Shown here piece by piece: positions 18,112 through 48,921 of a stretch of 53,713 nucleotides of DNA. Both the position numbers and the translations under genes were made by a program. The stretch comes from a virus. Lineage: Duplodnaviria > Caudoviricetes. The notes under the pieces are model-generated. The model saw only the letters and a program-made list of their open reading frames with translations. It searched no databases and was not told the DNA's origin. Position 1 is the stretch's first letter, and every line of letters starts with the position of its first letter. The stretch spans positions 1-53,713 of IMG/VR virus record IMGVR_UViG_3300036852_000233, one strand, 5' to 3'.

Positions 18112-18740
18112 ACCGCCCCCGCTTGCTGGATCTTATGTGCGGGGCCGGAGGTAGTGCAGTCGGATATGCGCGAGCGGGATTCGATGTCGTCGGCGTGGAT
18201 ATCGCCCCGCAGCCCCGGTACCCGTTCGAGTTCCACCAGGCAGACGCGCTCACGTTCCCACTGGACGGGTTCGACGCCATCCACGCCAGCCCACCCTGCC
18301 ACGATCACACGCCGCTGTCGTCGCTGGTCGGCAAGGATGGCACCGGCTGGCTACTCGCCGCCACCAGGAAGCGCCTGCTCGCTTCTGGCGTTCCCTGGGT
18401 CATCGAGAACGTCCCCCACGCTCCGCTGCGCCCCGATCTCGTGCTGTGCGGCGAGATGTTCGGGCTGCGGACTATCCGCCACCGCTGGTTCGAGTTGTGG
18501 TCCGGGTTCGTGCTCCAGCCAGGCCACCCACCCCACACGGCCAAGACGAGCACCCGCAAGCGGCGGTCCTGCTGGGACGCGGGGATGCACATCTCCGTCA
18601 CCGGCGATGTGGGTGTCTATGTCGGCTTGCTGGCGATGGGCATTGACTGGATGACCGGCGACGAACTCTCCCAGGCGATCCCGCCCGCCTACACGGAGTT
18701 CATCGGCGGACTCCTGCTCCAGGCGGTGGCAGCAGCATGA
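18108..18740 (+). CDS. C5-cytosine DNA methyltransferase-like protein
   Basis: LLDLMCGAGG, IHASPPC, VIENV. Confidence 0.82.
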   Translation: MNRPRLLDLMCGAGGSAVGYARAGFDVVGVDIAPQPRYPFEFHQADALTFPLDGFDAIHASPPCHDHTPLSSLVGKDGTGWLLAATRKRLLASGVPWVIENVPHAPLRPDLVLCGEMFGLRTIRHRWFELWSGFVLQPGHPPHTAKTSTRKRRSCWDAGMHISVTGDVGVYVGLLAMGIDWMTGDELSQAIPPAYTEFIGGLLLQAVAAA

Positions 18741-19729
18741 GTATCGCCCTACCTACAGCAACGACCGCACCGATATCCGCTGTTTGCGACTTGGAGCGGT
18801 CTGTCCCCTTAGGCCAGGATGCGGCGCCCGACATCCTGGCACCAGCCGGTCAGCTTTGGACTGAGGGGGGACCTTTGCCATCCAACGAGGTATGGGAGCA
18901 GTATGCGCTGCTGCTGCACCGCCGCCACCGCAGTCAGGAAACCATCGCTCTGTACGAGGTTGCCCTGAGCAAGCTCTGGGCGTTCCTCGCCGACCAGCAG
19001 CACGACTGGCGAACGGTTACCCCGGAACTCGTGGACGCATGGCTGGACGGGCGAGTGCGGGCGGAGTGGACCCGCAACACCTACGGCCGGGTCGTCCGCC
19101 GGTTCTACGCTTGCGCCGTCAGCCGCGGCTGGTTGGACGGTCCGAATCCACTGGAGGACTGGCAGCCACCCCCGGCACCGCCGCCGCGGCCGCGGGCGTT
19201 GCCGCTGGATGCCATCGGCGCGTTGCTGGCGGTCGTCGACCCGAGGATCAGGATGATGGTGCTGCTCGGCTATCATCAGGCCCTGCGGGTCGGGGAGATC
19301 GTGCGACTGTCCGTCGAGGATCTCGCGCTGGGGGCGGACCCGCCGATGGTCCGGGTGGACGGCAAGGGTGGCAAGCAGACGTGGATGCCGCTATCCCCGG
19401 CGCTGGTCGGCCCGCTGCGCGCATGGCTGCTGCTCCGCCCGGCGCGGGGGCCGCTGATTCCTAACTACCGCGACCCCACCAGATACCTACATCCCAAGTA
19501 CGCGGCACATCTGCTCGCCAGCGTCATGCGGCCGGTGGTCGGGGACTCCGGGCATGCGCTGCGGCACACCGCCGCTAGACAGCTCCGCCGGCAGACCCAC
19601 GACCCGTTCCTGGTCCGCGACGCGCTGCGACATGCGGGCCTTCAGACGTTGGACGTGTACACGCAGGATCCGGAGCGGTTGGCGGCCGCGCTCGGCCAGC
19701 TACCCGACCCGCTCAAGACGGAGGCGTGA
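18737..19729 (+). CDS. Tyrosine recombinase (integrase/Xer-like)
   Basis: ALRVGE, GKGGK, HALRH, LRHA, VYT catalytic motifs. Confidence 0.88.
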   Translation: MSIALPTATTAPISAVCDLERSVPLGQDAAPDILAPAGQLWTEGGPLPSNEVWEQYALLLHRRHRSQETIALYEVALSKLWAFLADQQHDWRTVTPELVDAWLDGRVRAEWTRNTYGRVVRRFYACAVSRGWLDGPNPLEDWQPPPAPPPRPRALPLDAIGALLAVVDPRIRMMVLLGYHQALRVGEIVRLSVEDLALGADPPMVRVDGKGGKQTWMPLSPALVGPLRAWLLLRPARGPLIPNYRDPTRYLHPKYAAHLLASVMRPVVGDSGHALRHTAARQLRRQTHDPFLVRDALRHAGLQTLDVYTQDPERLAAALGQLPDPLKTEA

Positions 19730-20790: not shown

Positions 20791-21039
20791 ATGGTGCCCG
20801 ACAGCAAGTATGACGACCTCGCCGAGCAGTGGGCACATATCGCGTCGCTTGTCGAGCAGGCAAGCCGGGACGCGGACGTGCTCCACGTGCCGATCCCACA
20901 GTCGCTGGCCCGCGGCATGGCCGACCTGCTGGTGTTCCCATCCGAGATCCGCCAGGTCGGCGCCCGCCGCGCCGGCACGTGGGTTGAGCCGATCATGGAA
21001 CGCGCCGACGAACCACCACCCGACCCGGAGGAACCATGA
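20791..21039 (+). CDS. Hypothetical protein
   Basis: AAGGAG RBS. Confidence 0.6.
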   Translation: MVPDSKYDDLAEQWAHIASLVEQASRDADVLHVPIPQSLARGMADLLVFPSEIRQVGARRAGTWVEPIMERADEPPPDPEEP

Positions 21040-21227
21040 ACGAGCAGCAAGGACCACCCGCCTTCAGCGCCGCGGACATGCCCATCCAGGATGAAGGCTG
21101 GCACCTATCGACACGCTATGAGGTGCTCGAACGTTGGCTGGAATCGGCGAAGGTGCGGCAGGTCAGGGTGCGGGACATTGTGACCGGGCACACCATCAGC
21201 CGGACGGACTTCTATGAGGGACCATGA
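21036..21227 (+). CDS. Hypothetical protein
   Basis: GGAGG RBS; ATGA coupling. Confidence 0.6.
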   Translation: MNEQQGPPAFSAADMPIQDEGWHLSTRYEVLERWLESAKVRQVRVRDIVTGHTISRTDFYEGP

Positions 21228-21285
21228 GCGAGCAGGTCAGGATCTACCGGGTGTTCTGCGAGAGGCAGGCCGGAGGTGAATCGTG

Positions 21286-21308
21286 TTGTCACACCCTCGC
21301 TGTACGAT
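21286..21308 (+). promoter_or_regulatory. PafBC/RecA-NDp-type promoter driving cassette A
   Basis: TTGTCA-cac-N8-TACGAT; same spacing in cassette B. Confidence 0.6.
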
Positions 21309-21314
21309 GCAGCT

Positions 21315-21482
21315 GTCCCGCTCGACAACCAAGATCGGGGCGATGCCGCCGGGCAGGCGGTGTACCGCGCGGGCAGGCCCTTGACCGGGCCGAGTCCCCG
21401 CCGAGAGGCGGGAGGCGGTTCCGCGAACCACCCGGACAGGCAACCGGGAATCCCCGCCCTTCTAGGGCAGGGAGGATGTCAA
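21315..21482 (+). ncRNA. TnpB omega-RNA-like scaffold A (IS200/IS605 right-end derived)
   Basis: Ends GGAATCCCCGCCCTTCTAGGGCAGGGAGGATGTCAA; hairpins shared with 36324-36477. Confidence 0.7.
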
Positions 21483-21632
21483 TATCTGCTGGTGTGCCTA
21501 GAGTGCAGCGAAGGCTCCGATGCGCTCATTCTGCCGTTCGACAGTGCAGAGGCGCGGGGGAAGTGGGCGGCCGCGCATACCAAAGAGACTGGGCACGACC
21601 GCTGGTACGTGGAAGACGAGGAACGATGAGCG

Positions 21633-33449: not shown

Positions 33450-33983
33450 CTAGATGAACGACTGCTGCCCAGGACTAGGACGTCCCCTGCGTCTCAATCC
33501 CGCTGCTGCTAACTTCCTTTGGCGCTCCGCACGGCACTGGCGACAGGCATTATGTCCCGTCTTTGGGTGGACGTAGATATTTGCAGGAATCCAAGGATGC
33601 CCATTACGACAAGCGCCATTCATCTTGCGCGTCGCACGCGCACGCGCAGTATTTTCTCCACGCGTGACAATTTCCATATGTTGCGGGTTAACGCAGCAGC
33701 GGACACGACACAGATGATCCAGCGTCAAACCATCAGGGATGGGGCCTTTCAGCAACTCCCAGATAAGGCGATGCGCGGCTCGGTTCTTTCGGCTGCCTGG
33801 AGGCCACGTGGCGGCCCCGTAACCAGTCACGGCAACATGGCCGATCCAGAGCCAGCATCCTGTCGTTTCTTCAATGCGGATCTTAACCGTCAGCTTGAAC
33901 GGCAGGGCAGACAGGTCCACAAGGGACCACCCCCTTGATGTGAGTTCCTTGATGTCGTCAGATAAACGGGGAGCCCCAGCCAT
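33450..33983 (-). CDS. Free-standing HNH homing endonuclease
   Basis: CWLW.G...GYG...AHR..WE...LDHLC....CVNP.H; C.NGH...C..C; low-GC3 codons. Confidence 0.9.
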   Translation of the reverse strand: MAGAPRLSDDIKELTSRGWSLVDLSALPFKLTVKIRIEETTGCWLWIGHVAVTGYGAATWPPGSRKNRAAHRLIWELLKGPIPDGLTLDHLCRVRCCVNPQHMEIVTRGENTARARATRKMNGACRNGHPWIPANIYVHPKTGHNACRQCRAERQRKLAAAGLRRRGRPSPGQQSFI

Positions 33984-34003
33984 CAAGGGAACTGGGGCTC
34001 CCC
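33968..34003 (-). promoter_or_regulatory. 12-bp hairpin sequestering the HNH RBS and start codon
   Basis: GGGGAGCCCCAG-N12-CTGGGGCTCCCC; ATG in loop. Confidence 0.6.
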
Positions 34004-34544: not shown

Positions 34545-35133
34545 CAGCCCTGCCTCTTGGCTTCCTCGTCAGCACGCTTCTGGCGGCCCTCGTCGATCGC
34601 CTCGGTCACGAACCGGAGCCGTTCCGCCTGCCGCCAGCCGAGCTCGTCGACCATGGTGGGGGTCCACCGGAACCGGTCAGCCCACCACAGGTCATCCAGG
34701 GCGGCATGCCAGACCGGATCCAGCCGCTGTGCGAGCTGCGGTTTCAGCCCGTACTGGCCGATGTTGACGAGGGTCCCGCGGGCAAAGGGGATGGTGCCTG
34801 CCCGTTGGCCTCGCCACCGCCAAGGATCTCCGCCAGCGCCGGGGTGACCACCGCCGCCAGCGGCTTGTGATACTTGACGGGGAGGTCCTGCACCGACGCC
34901 AAGCTCACCTCGAGCGGCTGGCCATCGTCGTTGGTCAAGGACCAGCGGCGCACGAACCGCACGATCAGCGCATCCTGCAGGGTGCCGATCCCGGACAGCC
35001 CCATCCCGGCACCGAACAGGTTGATGCCTTCGTCGTCGGCGGCTTTGAGCGCGAACCGGACGTCGCCGCGGCGCAGGTCGCCAATGTCGCGCAGATCGGC
35101 CGTGTGGCCGTCGGGGAGTTCGATGGTGGCCAT
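34544..35133 (-). CDS. Tail assembly chaperone G (35133-34744) / GT via -1 frameshift
   Basis: Slippery C-CCT-TTG (34783-34789) enters the frame encoding ADRFRWTPTMVDEL; between tail tube and TMP. Confidence 0.75.
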
Positions 35134-36278
35134 CAGAACGCCTGGTCCTGGGAGACGAGCCTGATCTGCACCGGAACACCCCCACCGTCGTCGTAGCACT
35201 CAAATCCGATACTCTCCGGAATCAAGTCAGGACCGCCAACCGCGAGGGGGTCAGTCTTGAATTTGACAAATGGGAGCACAAAGGACAAACGGTACGCGCC
35301 GGTGCCGGTGCTGCCGGCCGCGCCGTCGGCGCCGGAGCCGTTGATGCCGTGGGCGAAGTCAAGCTGCAACGACCGGGTCGCATTGGTGGAGAACAGGTCG
35401 TAGAACTCGGTGCGGTTGGTGAACTCGGCGTCCAGCGTGCCGGTGAGGGTGGGGATGCCGTTCTCAAGCTGTTCGCGCTTTATGCCGGCGTTGCCGAACC
35501 CGTACCGCTCGGAGGCGACCGGCCGGGCGGCGGTGAGGGTGAACCCCTTCACCACGTGGCTGACCGAGGCGGTGCCGGTCAGGGTGGTGTAGTTCCCGGT
35601 CCCGGTCCCGGTCCCACCAGTACCCGGCAGCGACCCGGTGCCCGCCTGGGTGCCGGTGCCGACCTGGAACAGGTAGGCGTCCACGAACGAGAAGATCTGC
35701 GACTGATAGGTGGATGCGGCGAACACGGGCTGGGTGATGGACCCGGTGGTGGTGCAGTTCATCCCGTCGGCGGTGAGCTTCAGCTGCGCGAGCGCACCGT
35801 CGGAGCAGGTGAACTCCCAGCCCGAGAACTTGAGGCCGGAGTAGCCGAACCGGATGGACGTGTAGGGGCTTGCGATCTGCGGGCGGCCGACCTCTGCGGT
35901 GAGTGACAGGCCGGCGGTCGTGCCGGGCTGGTGGACCTGCTGCCACGCGGAGGTGGCGCCGAGCTGCTGCGCCCCGGTCGCCGGTGACCCGAGGGCGTAG
36001 TGGAGCAGAAACCCCATGCCCTTCCCACCGGTCGCTGACACGCCCCGGTCGGCGAACTCGAAGACGAGGTCGCCGTTGACGTCGTAGCGGCTGATCGCGG
36101 TCCGCTGGCCACGCTTGAACGCCTGCCCCTGCTTCAACCCGGCCGAGTCGAGGTAGGTCGGGGTGAGCGCCAGCGACTCCGACAGGAACTCATACCAGGC
36201 GGTCGGCACCGCTTCGGTGCCTGGGGTACCTTCGACGCCGAACCCGAGACTGGCGCCAAGCCCGGATGCGTAGGGGAT
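35133..36278 (-). CDS. Major tail tube protein, apparent ATC start
   Basis: PYASGLGASLGFGVE..PGT...EF.SESL; GGAGG-N8-ATC. Confidence 0.82.
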   Translation of the reverse strand: MPYASGLGASLGFGVEGTPGTEAVPTAWYEFLSESLALTPTYLDSAGLKQGQAFKRGQRTAISRYDVNGDLVFEFADRGVSATGGKGMGFLLHYALGSPATGAQQLGATSAWQQVHQPGTTAGLSLTAEVGRPQIASPYTSIRFGYSGLKFSGWEFTCSDGALAQLKLTADGMNCTTTGSITQPVFAASTYQSQIFSFVDAYLFQVGTGTQAGTGSLPGTGGTGTGTGNYTTLTGTASVSHVVKGFTLTAARPVASERYGFGNAGIKREQLENGIPTLTGTLDAEFTNRTEFYDLFSTNATRSLQLDFAHGINGSGADGAAGSTGTGAYRLSFVLPFVKFKTDPLAVGGPDLIPESIGFECYDDGGGVPVQIRLVSQDQAF

Positions 36279-36295
36279 TGGACTCACCTCCGTAC

Positions 36296-36317
36296 TGTCA
36301 CACGCATGGGATACGAT
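36296..36317 (+). promoter_or_regulatory. PafBC/RecA-NDp-type promoter driving cassette B
   Basis: TGTCA-cac-N8-TACGAT. Confidence 0.6.
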
Positions 36318-36323
36318 GATGTT

Positions 36324-36477
36324 GCGCTCGGCGATAACCAAGCTGGGACGCTCTGCCGCAGGACATGCGGTGAACAGCGCGGGCAGTCACTCCGGTGGCG
36401 AGGCATCAAGCCGGTTCCGCGAACCACCCGGAGAGACAACCGGGAACCCTTCGCCCGTAAGCGAAGGGGGATGTCAA
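36324..36477 (+). ncRNA. TnpB omega-RNA-like scaffold B
   Basis: GGTTCCGCGAACCACCCGGA...CAACCGGGAA-hairpin-GGATGTCAA shared with scaffold A. Confidence 0.7.
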
Positions 36478-36638
36478 TCCTTGTCCTTCGCCTTGGCGGC
36501 GGGCTTGTCGGTGACGGGCTGGAAATACTCAGCTGGCAGGTTGGTGCCGTCGGGGACCTCGACGACCTCGTCGGCGTCCACGTCCCGGCCGACCAGCGGG
36601 AAGCTGACGGGACCACCGCTCACGTTGCGTACCTTCAC
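36474..36638 (-). CDS. Small virion-associated protein (54 aa, not in ORF track)
   Basis: MKVRNVSGGPVSFPLVGRDVDADEVVEVPD...; AGGAGG RBS; its TGA is supplied by the cassette end. Confidence 0.7.
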   Translation of the reverse strand: MKVRNVSGGPVSFPLVGRDVDADEVVEVPDGTNLPAEYFQPVTDKPAAKAKDKD

Positions 36639-36646
36639 CTGTCCTC

Positions 36647-37129
36647 CTAGAGGCGTGCTTTGGCGTCGATGCGGAACAGGACCTTCACGAGGACACCCTG
36701 GCTGGTCTGGTCCTGCCGCAGCTCCGACCCGCCGCTGACGGGTTCGCAGAACAGCACCAGCCCGCCGAGCATCGGGTCGGCGCGGATCAGCGTCTCGACC
36801 GCGTGGACGATCCCGTAGGCTTCCAGCCGCAGGGTCCGCACGTCGGTCTCACCACTCCACGCTTCGGCGCAGCAGTGGATGGTGAGGGTTTCGTCGACGG
36901 CCTGCTTGCCGAGCGCCGCCCACGTCTGCTCACTGTTGGCGGAGACCGGCTCGTCCGAGTCAGGGTCGGTCAAGCCCACATACAGGTTCCGCTGCGAGGG
37001 TTCCTGGGTGATCCGGGGCCCGTCGTACACCGCGACGGTGTTGGGGGCCGGCGCTGTGCCGAGCGTCACATCACCCGAGAACAGGCTCACCAAGTAGTCA
37101 AGAACGTCCGGTACTCTGGATGTGCTCAT
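36647..37129 (-). CDS. Tail terminator/completion protein
   Basis: VYDGP, D..LGG; upstream of tail tube. Confidence 0.7.
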   Translation of the reverse strand: MSTSRVPDVLDYLVSLFSGDVTLGTAPAPNTVAVYDGPRITQEPSQRNLYVGLTDPDSDEPVSANSEQTWAALGKQAVDETLTIHCCAEAWSGETDVRTLRLEAYGIVHAVETLIRADPMLGGLVLFCEPVSGGSELRQDQTSQGVLVKVLFRIDAKARL

Positions 37130-37188
37130 GGGCGTGGCACGGCAGGGTTAGGCTCGGCATGGCACGGCTCGGCAGGCATGGCACTCAT
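37126..37188 (-). repeat. Pentanucleotide (GGCNN)n tract encoding a 20-aa bridging mini-ORF
   Basis: ggcgt ggcac ggcag ggtta ggctc ggcat ggcac ggctc ggcag; ATGAG duplicated at both ends. Confidence 0.7.
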
Positions 37189-38027
37189 ACGTACGCCTCG
37201 AGCATGGCCCAGGCGATCAGTTCGACCGCCCGGTTGGGGATCGCATAGCCGAACCCGGGCAGGGTGACCTCCTCCTCCCCACCGATGCTGGGACGGAGCG
37301 ACGGGCCATGCTGGGTCTGCCACAGGTGTTCGAGGACGATCCGTGCGAACTCGTTGAACGACGGTGGGATTGCGGTGCCCCATCCGACGGTGTAGACGAC
37401 GGTGTAGGCGCCACCCCAGCCGAGGAACGGCCAGCCGAGCTTGCGGCGGATGATCCCCGCGTTCGAGTCGATCTCGAGGTCGCTGGTCGACTGCGCGACC
37501 CCGCTGGCGACGTCGGTGATGGAGGTGACCGCCACTAGCGGCCGTTGCCGGACAGCGATGGTGGTGTGCCCGTACGGGCACGGGACCCGTTCGGTCACGC
37601 TGCGGGTAATGATCGGGCCGCCGGTGAGCTTCTCGAGGTTGGCTTGGATGGTGGCGATCTTGCTCTGGATCTCGCTGTCGTAGGTGGTGTTCGTCTGCGG
37701 GATGTTCAGATGGTCCTTGGCGTCCTGCAAGCCGAGGACCGCGACCTCCAGGGGGTCGAACACCTCGAACACGGAGTAGGAGACGCCGGCGTTGGTGCCG
37801 GTCGCGACCCACTTGTACGAGTAGTGGCCGATCAGGTTGATGTCGGCGGTTGGGATGTCCTGGTGGTACAGGCCGGTCCCGTCGTTGGTCGGCGAGGAGT
37901 AGGTCTGGGTGGACGCGTCAGGCTTCTGCACCGTGAGGGCGATCGCGGTCGCGTTGCCAAGCTGGCCGGCAGCGTTCTTGACGGTGGTTGACAGGGTGAT
38001 CGGCGCGCCCTGCGGATACCTGGGCAT
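37185..38027 (-). CDS. Head-tail adaptor with N-terminal beta-rich extension
   Basis: L.DAK.HLNI...D.EI, VVYTVGW...P, IP.RA.EL. Confidence 0.75.
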   Translation of the reverse strand: MPRYPQGAPITLSTTVKNAAGQLGNATAIALTVQKPDASTQTYSSPTNDGTGLYHQDIPTADINLIGHYSYKWVATGTNAGVSYSVFEVFDPLEVAVLGLQDAKDHLNIPQTNTTYDSEIQSKIATIQANLEKLTGGPIITRSVTERVPCPYGHTTIAVRQRPLVAVTSITDVASGVAQSTSDLEIDSNAGIIRRKLGWPFLGWGGAYTVVYTVGWGTAIPPSFNEFARIVLEHLWQTQHGPSLRPSIGGEEEVTLPGFGYAIPNRAVELIAWAMLEAYV

Positions 38028-39782
38028 CTAGCTTGGCCCTCCTGCCGTGTCGGTCGCCGTGAGCGTCGCGGTCATCCCGCCCGTCGTGCTGAGCGCCGCA
38101 GCCGCCTCCGAGGTGGTCAGCGTTGCCGCCGCAGTCGCCACAGTCAGCGTGGCGGTCGCCTGATCCGCTGCGGTGAGAACACCGATCGTGAACGGGATCT
38201 GCGTGGCAGCCGTGAACGTGTCGACGCCGGCGGCCGTCTCAGTCAGCGTGACGAGCACGGCCGCGGCGAGGGTGTCTGCCGCTGCTGCCAGGTCGGCAAG
38301 GGAGACCTGGACTGTGACCGTGAAACTGTCGCTTGCGGTGCCCCCGTCGGCGAGAGTCTTGGGTTGACCGACTGCCACCGAGTCTGTGGCGGCTCCCACG
38401 TCGGCGAGGGGGATTGCCGCCGTGACCGCAAGGCTGTCGGCGGTAGTGCCCTGGTCGATCAGCGGCGTCTGGACGACGACGGCGAGGCTGTCGGTGGCGG
38501 ACCCGGAGTCGAACAGGGGGATCTGCTGGACACCCTGCGCGATGGAGATCGAGTCGGACCCGGTGCCCGAATCGTTGAGGGAGATCTGCGCTGCGACTGT
38601 GAGGGTATCGGCGGCGGCGCCGGCTTCCGCCAGCGGCACCGCGGCACTGACGGTCAGGGAGTCGGCAGCGGTGCCGGTGTCCGCTAGGGGTTTGGGGATC
38701 CCGACGTTGATCGAGTCGGCTGCGGATCCCGTGTCGGCCAGTGGGATCTGCGCGGCGACGGTGACCGAGTCCGACGCGGCGCCGACCTCGCCGAGCGGCA
38801 CGGCGGCAGTGACGGTGAGCGAGTCCGATCCGGTGCCGCTGTCGTTCAGCCCGACCGGGATCGAAACGGCGAGGCTGTCGGTTCCGGCGCCCACATCGGC
38901 CAGCGGGACCGCTGCGGCGACCGTGAGGCTGTCAGCTGCGGTGCCACTGTCCGATAGTGGTGCGGCGACGGTGACTGTGAAACTGTCGCTTGCGGCACCG
39001 GAGTCGTTGAGGGTGATCGCGGTCGCGCCGCCGCCGACCGGGCCGAGGTAGGCGCTGGTGGAGACGCCAATGTCGTCCAGGTAGTAGGTGACGTTGGCGA
39101 TGCCGGTGCCGGTCTGCCCGAACCGGACCCGGTCGATCGTCCCGCCCGTGTTCAGTGCAGTGTTGGTGATCGTCTCCAGCGGGGTGTTCGACTCGGGTGA
39201 GTCGAACAGCTTGCACTCCAACACCCCCGCAGCCGCATCGCCAGTGCAGAACGCCTCCACCCGGACCAGCTGATTGAGCGGGACCGAGTTGCCCATGGTC
39301 GCCACCGTCGACCCAGCCGAGTCGGTGGTGAGCAGCTTCCCCGTCGTGCTGATCTGCACCGACCCACGGACGTTCGAGACGTTGAGCCAACGGAACAGGC
39401 GGGTCTGCGTGCCCGGGTTGGCGGTCAGGTACAGGTAGGCGCGGAGCCACACCGTGCCGGTGGCGCCACCGAGCGCCGTGGACCACATGACGTAGGCTTC
39501 GCCGAGGGTCGCGCCGGTCTGGCACAGCATCCCCAGCGTGCCATGGCCGGGGTGGGCATTGGAGAAGTTCACCGCGCCGTCGCCGGCGCTTACGGTGACC
39601 TGGTCGAACTGGGTGTTCCCGACCCCTCCCGCATTGCTGGTCGAGATGGCGACACCGTTGGTGCCACCCTCAAAGTCGTTGGTGACGGTGACCGCAACAA
39701 GGCCTGCCGCAGGCTTGAGGATCCGTGACCCGCGGCGGATGATCCGGGCTGGGGGCTTGAGATATCCCCGGCGAGGTGGCAT
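38028..39782 (-). CDS. Virion fiber/decoration protein: lectin-like domain plus ~15 repeats of ~18 aa
   Basis: (P/S)LxDxGxxxDSLxV repeats; N-domain similar to part of 27696-30044. Confidence 0.7.
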   Translation of the reverse strand: MPPRRGYLKPPARIIRRGSRILKPAAGLVAVTVTNDFEGGTNGVAISTSNAGGVGNTQFDQVTVSAGDGAVNFSNAHPGHGTLGMLCQTGATLGEAYVMWSTALGGATGTVWLRAYLYLTANPGTQTRLFRWLNVSNVRGSVQISTTGKLLTTDSAGSTVATMGNSVPLNQLVRVEAFCTGDAAAGVLECKLFDSPESNTPLETITNTALNTGGTIDRVRFGQTGTGIANVTYYLDDIGVSTSAYLGPVGGGATAITLNDSGAASDSFTVTVAAPLSDSGTAADSLTVAAAVPLADVGAGTDSLAVSIPVGLNDSGTGSDSLTVTAAVPLGEVGAASDSVTVAAQIPLADTGSAADSINVGIPKPLADTGTAADSLTVSAAVPLAEAGAAADTLTVAAQISLNDSGTGSDSISIAQGVQQIPLFDSGSATDSLAVVVQTPLIDQGTTADSLAVTAAIPLADVGAATDSVAVGQPKTLADGGTASDSFTVTVQVSLADLAAAADTLAAAVLVTLTETAAGVDTFTAATQIPFTIGVLTAADQATATLTVATAAATLTTSEAAAALSTTGGMTATLTATDTAGGPS

Positions 39783-47664: not shown

Positions 47665-48300
47665 ATGCTCACCGTCAAGCGCCTACTCATCGCCGGCGCC
47701 ACCATCGCCATCGTTGCCGGGATAGCCGCCTGCTCCAGCTCAGCCAAGACGGATGCCGCCGCAATCCCCGTTGTGACCCCGGCATCCCGCGGCGGCCCCG
47801 TCGGGTTCCCCGACGAGGGGATCACGACCACGACCGCCCCACACATCACCGTCCCAGCACTGCACCTCGGCGACACCGTCAACCTCGCCGTCATCAACGT
47901 CCCCGCCGGCGACACCGGCGCCGAAGCACCACGGTTCGCAGTAGACCCGTCCAAGCCGACCGCCGGACGACTGCAAGCCGCCCGGGTCAAGACCACCCGC
48001 GGCAGCGACTACGACACCCCCGAACGCGGCCTCTACCTCGGCGTGTACATGAAGGCCCAGTCCGTCCACGGCACTGGCATCCCCGGCGGGCTCGGCTGGA
48101 ACCTCTACGTGGTCGTCAACGGCCACCACTACGACTCCACCATCGCCATCGACGGGTTCAAGCCTGATTTCGGCGACGTCTACCTGCACCCCGGCGAGAC
48201 CGACGAGGGCTGGTTCGTGTACGACGTGCCCGCCGCCCACGGCAAGATCGTCTTGACCGACGAGTTCAGCGACGAGCAGATCGCTACCTGGAGCTTCTGA
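47665..48300 (+). CDS. Lipoprotein, DUF4352-like beta-sandwich
   Basis: Lipobox IAAC; LHPGET.EGW.VYDVP. Confidence 0.75.
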   Translation: MLTVKRLLIAGATIAIVAGIAACSSSAKTDAAAIPVVTPASRGGPVGFPDEGITTTTAPHITVPALHLGDTVNLAVINVPAGDTGAEAPRFAVDPSKPTAGRLQAARVKTTRGSDYDTPERGLYLGVYMKAQSVHGTGIPGGLGWNLYVVVNGHHYDSTIAIDGFKPDFGDVYLHPGETDEGWFVYDVPAAHGKIVLTDEFSDEQIATWSF

Positions 48301-48476
48301 TGTCCGAGCTCCTCACCATCAAAGAGGCTGGTGCGTACCTCAAGGTCTCCGTTGAGACACTCCGCAAGTGGCGCGCGCAGGGCCGCGGCCCCAAAGCCGT
48401 CAAGCTCGGCCGTCACCTGCGGTACCGGCCCGAGGACATCGACCAGTGGATCAAAGAGCAGGAAGGAGCACAGTAA
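48300..48476 (+). CDS. Excisionase/AlpA-like HTH protein (58 aa, not in ORF track)
   Basis: MSELLTIKEAGAYLKVSVETLRKWRAQGRGPKAVKLGRHLRYRPEDIDQWI. Confidence 0.88.
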   Translation: MSELLTIKEAGAYLKVSVETLRKWRAQGRGPKAVKLGRHLRYRPEDIDQWIKEQEGAQ

Positions 48477-48721
48477 TGCGCATCTACACAGGCAGGCACG
48501 GAACCCGCGTCAGCATGGGACCGTTCACCGCGCTGCTGGTCGGCATGTTCGTCTGGCCAGTCCAGATCATCTGGCACCTGTTCAAACTGATGGTCCCCAT
48601 CGCGATCGTGGTGCTGGCCGTGACCTGGCGGTTCAGCGTGTGGACGGTCCGGTGGACCATCGACGGTGGCAAGATCCTGTGGGACGAATTCCACCACCAC
48701 GACGAGGCGCGAGACCTGTGA
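48476..48721 (+). CDS. Small membrane protein
   Basis: AAGGAG RBS; TAATG coupling; hydrophobic core. Confidence 0.7.
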   Translation: MRIYTGRHGTRVSMGPFTALLVGMFVWPVQIIWHLFKLMVPIAIVVLAVTWRFSVWTVRWTIDGGKILWDEFHHHDEARDL

Positions 48722-48921
48722 TCATCAAGAGCCGCGCAGCCAAACTCACCGAGGTCGTGCCCGGCGCCCCGACCCGCTGCCCGAACTGTCACCACCGGGT
48801 CGGCACCCACTTCCAGGCGTTCTACAGCGGCGACCCCGAGCTCCCCGATACGGTGCGTCTCGAAGGCTGGCGGTGCACACGGTGCGGCACCGTCCATGAC
48901 ATCCCACCAAAGGAGGTGTGA
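48718..48921 (+). CDS. Small Zn-ribbon protein
   Basis: CPNC...WRCTRCG; GTGA coupling. Confidence 0.6.
   Translation: MIIKSRAAKLTEVVPGAPTRCPNCHHRVGTHFQAFYSGDPELPDTVRLEGWRCTRCGTVHDIPPKEV

Follow-up and report, generated by a model that had tools for sequence, protein, structure and literature searches.

A probable orphan omegaRNA-like cassette between two tail genes of a phage genome in which no TnpB gene was found

Layout of the tail gene junction

The window analysed here is the whole of IMG/VR virus record IMGVR_UViG_3300036852_000233 (Duplodnaviria; Caudoviricetes), a complete virus genome of 53,713 bp with direct terminal repeats, and our subject is a short module, cassette B, which lies on its plus strand between two minus-strand tail genes and resembles the omegaRNA, the guide RNA of the nuclease TnpB. 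A diverged second copy, cassette A, lies elsewhere in the window and a covariance model built from the two cassettes, termed R1, was run over the window with filters off. The features at the tail gene junction are as follows.

35133..36287, minus strand: tail tube gene (Pfam Phage_tube_2 at 4.7e-18; phrog_290; alignment to four relatives)
36279..36290, plus strand: 12 nt, TGGACTCACCTC, present in neither the empty sites nor copy A
36291..36477, plus strand: cassette B, protein-less omegaRNA-like module of 187 nt, absent from relatives and scoring 210 bits with R1
36291..36353, plus strand: cassette-specific 5' module of cassette B, with blocks common to copy A
36354..36477, plus strand: putative omegaRNA scaffold homologue of cassette B, from homology to TnpB-linked RNAs
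36474..36638, minus strand: late gene of 54 amino acids (aa), from the list of open reading frames (ORFs), conserved in 4 of 4 relatives
36478..36497, plus strand: flank in guide position, antisense to the final codons of the 54-aa gene

The first-pass annotation had described cassette B as lying antisense in the tail operon with its TCAA end providing the TGA of the upstream gene, and both points were confirmed: the minus-strand 54-aa and tail tube genes flank the plus-strand cassette, and the 54-aa ORF ends at the terminal TCAA (36474-36477), its stop codon being the reverse complement of 36474-36476. Within the cassette, the 5' module contains TGTCACAC, a -10-like TACGAT hexamer of the TANNNT type (36312-36317) and a hairpin (36324-36351) with an AACCAAG loop, and the scaffold part finishes with a right-end hairpin (36447-36468) shortly before the TCAA.

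On the minus strand the tail tube gene is preceded by GGAGGTGA (36291-36284), a perfect 8-nt Shine-Dalgarno sequence, which is followed by GTCCA and then, after these 5 nt, by ATC (36278-36276) in frame with the tail tube ORF. The reverse complement of TGGACTCACCTC makes up most of this Shine-Dalgarno sequence. Read in gene sense, the junction is ...AAG GAT TGA, the reverse complement of the cassette, then GAGGTGAGTCCA ATC CCC TAC GCA. The ATC aligns exactly with the ATG or GTG start codon of the tail tube gene in 4 of 4 relatives, and the sole canonical start nearby is an in-frame GTG (36287-36285), 9 nt upstream of the ATC and inside the Shine-Dalgarno sequence, so that translation of this major tail protein may begin at a non-canonical codon, the candidates being ATC 36278 or GTG 36287. 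The earlier statement that a Shine-Dalgarno-N5-ATC arrangement lies just outside a promoter is thus upheld for the ribosome-binding site; the promoter itself was not recovered, there being no sigma-70 site in a consensus scan and the TACGAT hexamer alone.

Comparison with cassette-free relatives

Cassette B is absent from all four related viral contigs (L004-L007, with tail tube proteins 85-95% identical in amino acids), in which the junction reads, in gene sense, ...AAG GAG TAG CAG ATG CCG TAC GCG..., or with the variants TAG GTC GTG and TAG GCC GTG. In these relatives the tail tube Shine-Dalgarno sequence AAGGAG is the end of the 54-aa gene itself (AAGGAG-N6-ATG/GTG), and in the window 199 nt, made up of the 187-nt cassette and the 12 nt beside it, stand in place of 7 nt (CTGCTAC, plus strand), with homology to the relatives resuming at the first base after TCAA. 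The cassette end turns their GAG TAG into GAT TGA, and about 200 nt now separate the old AAGGAG site, at the close of the 54-aa gene, from the tail tube start. In four other soil metagenome runs, contigs cover both flanks and none covers 36274-36409, and in three of the four (X2, X4, X5) a contig bridges the flanks without the cassette, with 37, 58 or 639 other letters between them, the 37-letter joint being a typical empty site. The relatives G001-G004 (of which G003 is complete and three are partial) gave no R1 match and no TNB domain. Cassette B is an insertion at a conserved junction in this phage lineage, as had been proposed, and the comparison with cassette-free relatives that had been called for defines both the junction and the original ATG/GTG start. 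The insertion would have been tolerated by this phage because the cassette end rebuilds the upstream stop codon while the new Shine-Dalgarno sequence serves the tail tube gene.

The longest of the bridging joints (639 other letters) comes from run X5 and the 58-letter joint from another run, and the site between these two tail genes looks like a hot spot that has taken up different insertions. Identity to L006 falls to 85% and 88% in the adjacent 60-nt bins beside the cassette, with similar dips elsewhere; a co-conversion tract was considered from this, but the dip is mild and not special to the cassette and so is uninformative either way.

These junctions bear on one alternative explanation, that the complement of the cassette acts in cis within the late mRNA, as a structured spacer which uncouples translation of the tail tube gene from that of the 54-aa gene or which stabilises or processes the message. 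A 199-nt structured spacer with a stronger Shine-Dalgarno sequence has indeed replaced the overlapping stop, Shine-Dalgarno and start of the relatives, and the distance between the two genes is variable (37, 58 and 639 nt), but 4 of 4 relatives manage without the cassette, no terminator-like site was found on either strand by consensus scan, it is the positions shared with omegaRNAs on the plus strand that are conserved and copy A stands in a different context, and we therefore consider a cis-acting role to be highly improbable.

A second copy and the antisense question

The second copy and its flank are the following two features.

21282..21482, plus strand: cassette A, diverged copy of 201 nt in the same orientation, ending in GGATGTCAA like B
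21483..21502, plus strand: flank of cassette A in guide position, covering codons 4-10 of a small Cys-rich gene (phrog_27770)

The two cassettes align with a BLAST E-value of 3e-15 and are identical at about 76% of aligned columns (about 24% differ), with one block of 41 nt (36409-36449 in cassette B) at 90% identity. R1 scores cassette A at 228 bits (227.9) and cassette B at 210 bits in the window, where the next best match has 11.4 bits (E 0.059), and the existence of this second matching copy shows that cassette B is not a chance feature. The TACGAT box is found in copy A too, and the stems of the 5' hairpin differ in sequence between A and B while pairing is kept in both and the AACCAAG loop is conserved. 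The downstream gene begins with ATG ATC TTC TAT CTG in the complete relative G003, and it is the TAT CTG that cassette A abuts in the window, homology to G003 again resuming at the first base after TCAA.

The small Cys-rich gene after cassette A has lost its first three codons, including the ATG, and its start must be a later GTG or CTG or lie in read-through from the cassette, the frame 21276-21629 being open. Two further additions relative to G003 (locus L014) lie in the window at 21011-21482, a 63-aa gene (21036-21227) and a short stretch.

Antisense control of late genes had been raised by the first-pass annotation with an argument from orientation. According to this explanation a plus-strand RNA would pair with the late polycistronic mRNA across the spacer, independently of TnpB, and would tune tail tube expression or trigger RNase cleavage. 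The opposite orientation of cassette B to the tail operon and the conserved TACGAT box 5' of the structured part in both copies would suit such a regulator. Copy A, however, is in sense orientation to its neighbouring genes, so this could not be a function shared by the two; a transcript starting after TACGAT (36312-36317) would miss the Shine-Dalgarno sequence and start of the tail tube gene (36276-36291); and what has been conserved belongs to a protein-binding omegaRNA scaffold. Antisense control, whether by tuning expression or by cleavage, is thus very unlikely. The related claim that the putative guide is antisense to late mRNA is correct as far as the letters go, since the 20-mer, when reverse-complemented, gives the final stretch of the 54-aa gene; the word guide is a positional interpretation.

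Homology to the right ends of TnpB elements

A scan of IMG/VR for the 3' motif of the cassettes, CCGGGAA-hairpin-GGATGTCAA, found at least 117 viral loci, and R1 matched 11 of the 117 motif loci listed at E <= 0.01. Twelve loci were examined, and in 10 of them an ORF with a TnpB-type C-terminus (C..C..HDRDxNAAxNI) stops at or just before the motif, the remaining two being cut off by contig or locus ends; all six such ORFs tested carried OrfB_IS605 and the Cas12f1-like TNB domain above Pfam cut-offs. The best relatives, L170 (a metagenome contig) and L068 (a viral contig), score 42.4 bits each on R1 and are collinear with the cassettes up to a shared end, ...GGAGGATGTCAA, the alignment stopping exactly at ...GGATGTCAA. 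Across TnpB 3' ends the R1 matches range from 17.5 to 43.5 bits and always finish at the element boundary. An independent check set of seven loci, fetched by TnpB protein similarity to L170 alone and coming from 5 of 401 sampled Actinomycetota genomes, behaved in the same way, with R1 matching the 3' end of the gene in six of the seven.

Conservation is concentrated in the scaffold. At the 50 scaffold columns that are invariant among seven TnpB-linked RNAs, cassette A keeps 42 and cassette B keeps 44, while at variable scaffold columns the identity of the cassettes is merely 41-59%. Of the 10 invariant columns in the first ~60 nt the cassettes retain only 4, and comparison of the first 50 nt with the left ends or tnpB coding sequence of six relatives was not significant (best z-scores 3.8 and 3.0, most below 2). 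The 5' hairpin is unlike the right-end hairpin.

The fold of the scaffold was assessed in two ways. Among 17 aligned R1 matches, 89.0% of cells were paired compared to 75.4% in shuffles, and 28 pairs were changed on both sides compared to 12.3 +/- 2.3 in shuffles and 8-10 in slid controls, although this 17-sequence alignment (A8) was fitted to the R1 model, which favours the structure. A structure derived from seven TnpB-linked RNAs, with neither A nor B included, is kept by cassette B at 36 of 41 pairs and by cassette A at 29 of 41, compared to 14-17 of 41 in slid controls, and under it five pairs differ on both sides between A and B yet still pair. Taken together, the homology, the fold and the invariant columns indicate that in each cassette the cassette-specific 5' module is followed by about 125-140 nt of omegaRNA scaffold and right end, and cassette B is very probably a protein-less derivative of an IS200/IS605-family TnpB element, that is, an orphan omegaRNA module.

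Rfam gave no family at gathering score over the whole window, and an E-value scan of 36200-36560 returned a lone miRNA match which, at E 1.6, is due to chance. Other homologues of the cassettes were sought with pattern scans, which demand exact matches and so can miss diverged copies. The conserved-core 19-mer had no viral match, and one of the sibling-capable scans yielded one metagenome contig. The other candidates were rejected: a stem-fixed core pattern hit one viral locus without an R1 match and 28 genome loci of which blastn matched three over at most 49 nt, both taken as chance; a second-block pattern hit eight viral loci, none homologous; and the cassette-specific 5' pattern hit a single locus in a coding region, again without an R1 match.

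Two observations were made in passing on the TnpB elements collected. Three of them (L180, L181 and L182), from three different Actinomycetota genomes, have a near-identical flank after the right end, AATGCC..CGACCAGCGC, and this shared target site reflects either an orthologous old insertion or repeated targeting. A 537-nt IMG/VR contig (L130) has two right-end-like motifs in tandem, 53 nt apart (blastn 197-237 and 250-290), and may be a duplicated TnpB right end.

Absence of a nuclease or transposase gene

No gene for TnpB, an IscB-type protein or TnpA (Y1 transposase) was found in the complete genome by Pfam (61 ORFs) and PHROGs (15 + 25 ORFs), and six-frame searches with PF01385, PF01797 and the L170 TnpB protein gave no matches in any case. 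With PF07282 nothing exceeded the cut-off, and the lone match of 14.9 bits (48775-48900) was rejected as a TnpB because a shadow ORF ends there in a small zinc ribbon of the CxxC...CxxC form, which is no RuvC protein. The remnant frame of the cassettes (187 and 201 nt) carries no TnpB signal. The idea of a domesticated homing insertion, which had been put forward from the first reading of the sequence, would need a nuclease and so receives no backing from the gene content of the phage. Since the phage has no TnpB of its own, an RNA from the cassette could act solely with a TnpB supplied in trans, from the host or from a co-resident element. OmegaRNAs are encoded with an overlapping tnpB and the cassettes are not; PATE elements have no protein-coding gene between their ends and show presence/absence polymorphism with more than one copy, and the cassettes have no such gene, are present in two copies and are absent from 4 of 4 relatives.

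The flank in guide position and its target

The guide of a TnpB element is the sequence flanking its right end (Meers et al., PMC10055086), and the corresponding 20-mer of cassette B (36478-36497) is unique in the window even allowing three mismatches; that of cassette A (21483-21502) is also unique there. When compared with empty sites, the flank of B matches at 20/20 positions in L004, 19/20 in L007, 17/20 in L006 and 15/20 in L005, and the flank of A matches the G003 site at 17/20. The bases 5' of the target are CTAC in the empty B site and CTTC in the empty A site, and in the filled B allele they are GTCAA, so that a nuclease reading that position could tell the two alleles apart. Element ends were mappable for two relatives alone (L057/L098 and L183/L185; no left end could be placed for L170, L068 or L179-L182), and in these the first shared bases at the left boundary, TCATC and GCGAC, resemble the terminal motifs of the same elements, TCAAG and GTCAC. 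The target-adjacent motif (TAM) of ISGst2 likewise resembles the terminal motif of its element (Meers et al., PMC10055086).

A possible trans-acting guide and its main rival

From these features the following course of events can be proposed. A derivative of a TnpB element would have inserted between the 54-aa and tail tube genes, with a diverged sister inserting at the start of a small early gene. A plus-strand transcript reading through the right end would make an omegaRNA whose guide is 36478-36497, and this RNA, if loaded into a TnpB acting in trans, would recognise and cleave the cassette-free alleles of related phages. The outcome of repair would then decide whether the cassette is copied into those phages or whether they are excluded. 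Protein-less elements of the PATE-like kind "often encode omegaRNAs" that need TnpB in trans (Meers et al. 2023, PMC10055086). We consider it likely that the cassette is an omegaRNA derivative which depends on a nuclease in trans, while the suggestion that it works as a trans-acting guide is a tentative one that falls somewhat short of being probable. The fullest form of the proposal, in which two guide-only genes borrow the IS605-family TnpB of an actinobacterial host to cut cassette-free phages, at the tail gene junction with one guide and at the start of the small early gene with the other, giving RNA-only homing by over-inheritance of the cassettes and their flanking markers in mixed infections or by destruction of competitors, seems unlikely.

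The main rival to a trans-acting guide is an inert relic, a dead remnant left by the former insertion of a TnpB element or by recombination with a carrier phage, with no RNA function, which would have been retained through its location in a non-essential spacer, where its removal would now disturb the stop codon and ribosome-binding site that it supplies. This may be what the cassette is, though we would not call it probable. Several observations weigh against a working guide, and a number of them are also what speaks for a relic. The phage has no nuclease or transposase gene. The target has no recognisable TAM beside it: CTAC, like CTTC at the A site, is unlike the terminal motif of the element (GTCAA for cassette B), so the target may be uncleavable. 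A sigma-70 consensus scan of 36150-36700 gave no promoter-like site, leaving the cassette with no consensus promoter. The exact-match pattern scans of three collections turned up no sibling of the cassette that is both close and linked to TnpB, and the closest TnpB-linked relatives score 42-44 bits compared to 210-228 for A and B, on a model that was built from A and B. Any tnpB-derived coding signal has gone, with 4 of the 10 invariant 5' columns kept, and the cassette is known from one phage record. In leave-one-out comparison the cassettes keep 84-88% of invariant positions compared to 91-98% for the TnpB-linked RNAs (60 of 61-66), among which L183 is an outlier with 60/93. Single-sequence folding z-scores of the cassettes are modest (-2.0 and -1.8). 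No left-end hairpin like the right-end hairpin is visible in the cassettes, which makes mobility of the TnpA type doubtful.

Set against a relic, A and B differ at about 24% of columns yet share their architecture and the cassette-specific 5' module, and the retention of 84-88% of invariant positions and of most pairs, including pairs changed on both sides, would be unexpected after long neutral decay.

The phage genome and other genes in the window

The gene content of this soil phage fits a temperate actinophage, with WhiB, a tyrosine integrase (18737-19729), two DNA methylases and a RecE-like exonuclease, and the structural module on the minus strand includes terminase, portal, capsid, tail tube, an HNH endonuclease and tape measure. 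No tRNA or tmRNA was found in the window. The phage is distant from those in culture: its terminase reaches at most 40% identity to its counterparts in cultured actinophages, the tail tube protein had no tblastn match among cultured actinophages and a megablast of 35100-37200 against cultured phages gave no match. A distant blastn against cultured phages returned just chance matches of 21-39 nt, and a match to Streptomyces phage VWB was rejected as a relative, there being no homology beyond about 40 nt. Capsid matches were obtained in 8 of the 401 Actinomycetota genomes (a count which takes in the unpublished genome G398, on which no other result depends), all at 43% identity or less, and no capsid relative was found in the five genomes with the nearest TnpBs.

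Some other genes deserve mention. A free-standing HNH endonuclease gene (33450-33986, minus strand; HNH_3; phrog_826, 2e-43) adjoins the tape measure gene in the tail module, 2.5 kb from cassette B, and looks to be placed like a classical phage homing endonuclease, with no relation to the cassette. A 584-aa ORF of the structural module without a family match (38028-39782, minus strand) contains at least eight copies of a diverged unit at 38310-39016, the units being spaced by multiples of 54 nt (18 codons). Inside the minus-strand head module there are two plus-strand ORFs (47665-48921), one of 211 aa with a signal-peptide or lipoprotein-like N-terminus and the other a small CxxC...CxxC zinc ribbon (about 48740-48921), and the two look moron-like.

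Significance and comparison with known systems

Should the RNA be produced and taken up by a host TnpB, the phage would be a natural virus carrying the guide alone of an RNA-guided nuclease, aimed at the uninterrupted allele of its competitors, and the "cut-and-copy" homing of TnpB would extend from chromosomes and plasmids to conflict between phages. The cassette-free relatives with 20/20 and 19/20 target matches form a ready test set for this. If the cassette is inert, it would be an example of a phage absorbing an insertion at a junction of overlapping stop, Shine-Dalgarno and start; the interest is high solely if phages in conflict are shown to make use of a host TnpB in trans. A search of the literature, which cannot show that none exists, gave no account of a phage that lacks TnpB and carries omegaRNA-only cassettes, and the term "orphan" in 10.64898/2026.09.22.753285 refers to oppA genes.

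Four known systems offer comparisons. The free-standing homing endonuclease genes of phages (PMC13565253) are a functional analogy only, resembling the cassette in their insertion between conserved genes and in their specificity for the uninterrupted allele, whereas the cassette encodes no endonuclease and its recognition would be by an RNA guide with a borrowed nuclease.

Full-length TnpB elements of the IS605/IS1341 type (L170, L068 and L180-L183) are collinear with the cassettes over their last ~125-140 nt in both sequence and fold, with covarying helices and the same ...CCGGGAA-hairpin-GGAGGATGTCAA end. Their RNA, in contrast, overlaps the 3' end of a tnpB gene of 409-456 aa where the cassettes have no gene, and in the cassettes the upstream ~60 nt is unrelated or decayed and both copies have one internal hairpin loop of much reduced length. 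Virus-borne mini-CRISPR arrays use host Cas proteins in inter-virus conflict, and would be alike in that the virus carries the guide alone and borrows a host nuclease, though both the RNA family and the nuclease differ.

The PATE-like IS200/IS605 derivatives of Geobacillus stearothermophilus (PMC10055086) share with the cassettes the lack of an ORF, a right end with a subterminal hairpin, a terminal motif and an omegaRNA scaffold, with the adjacent flank as guide and reliance on a TnpB encoded elsewhere. Differences from the elements as described there are that the cassettes have no recognisable left-end hairpin resembling the right-end hairpin and have instead a cassette-specific 5' module of about 60 nt, that cassette B lies at an essential tail-gene junction in a phage without any TnpB or TnpA, and that the bases adjacent to its target do not resemble a cognate TAM. 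Judged from its sequence, the closest known kind to the cassette is thus a PATE-like, omegaRNA-encoding and protein-less IS200/IS605 derivative, and elements of this kind are already known.

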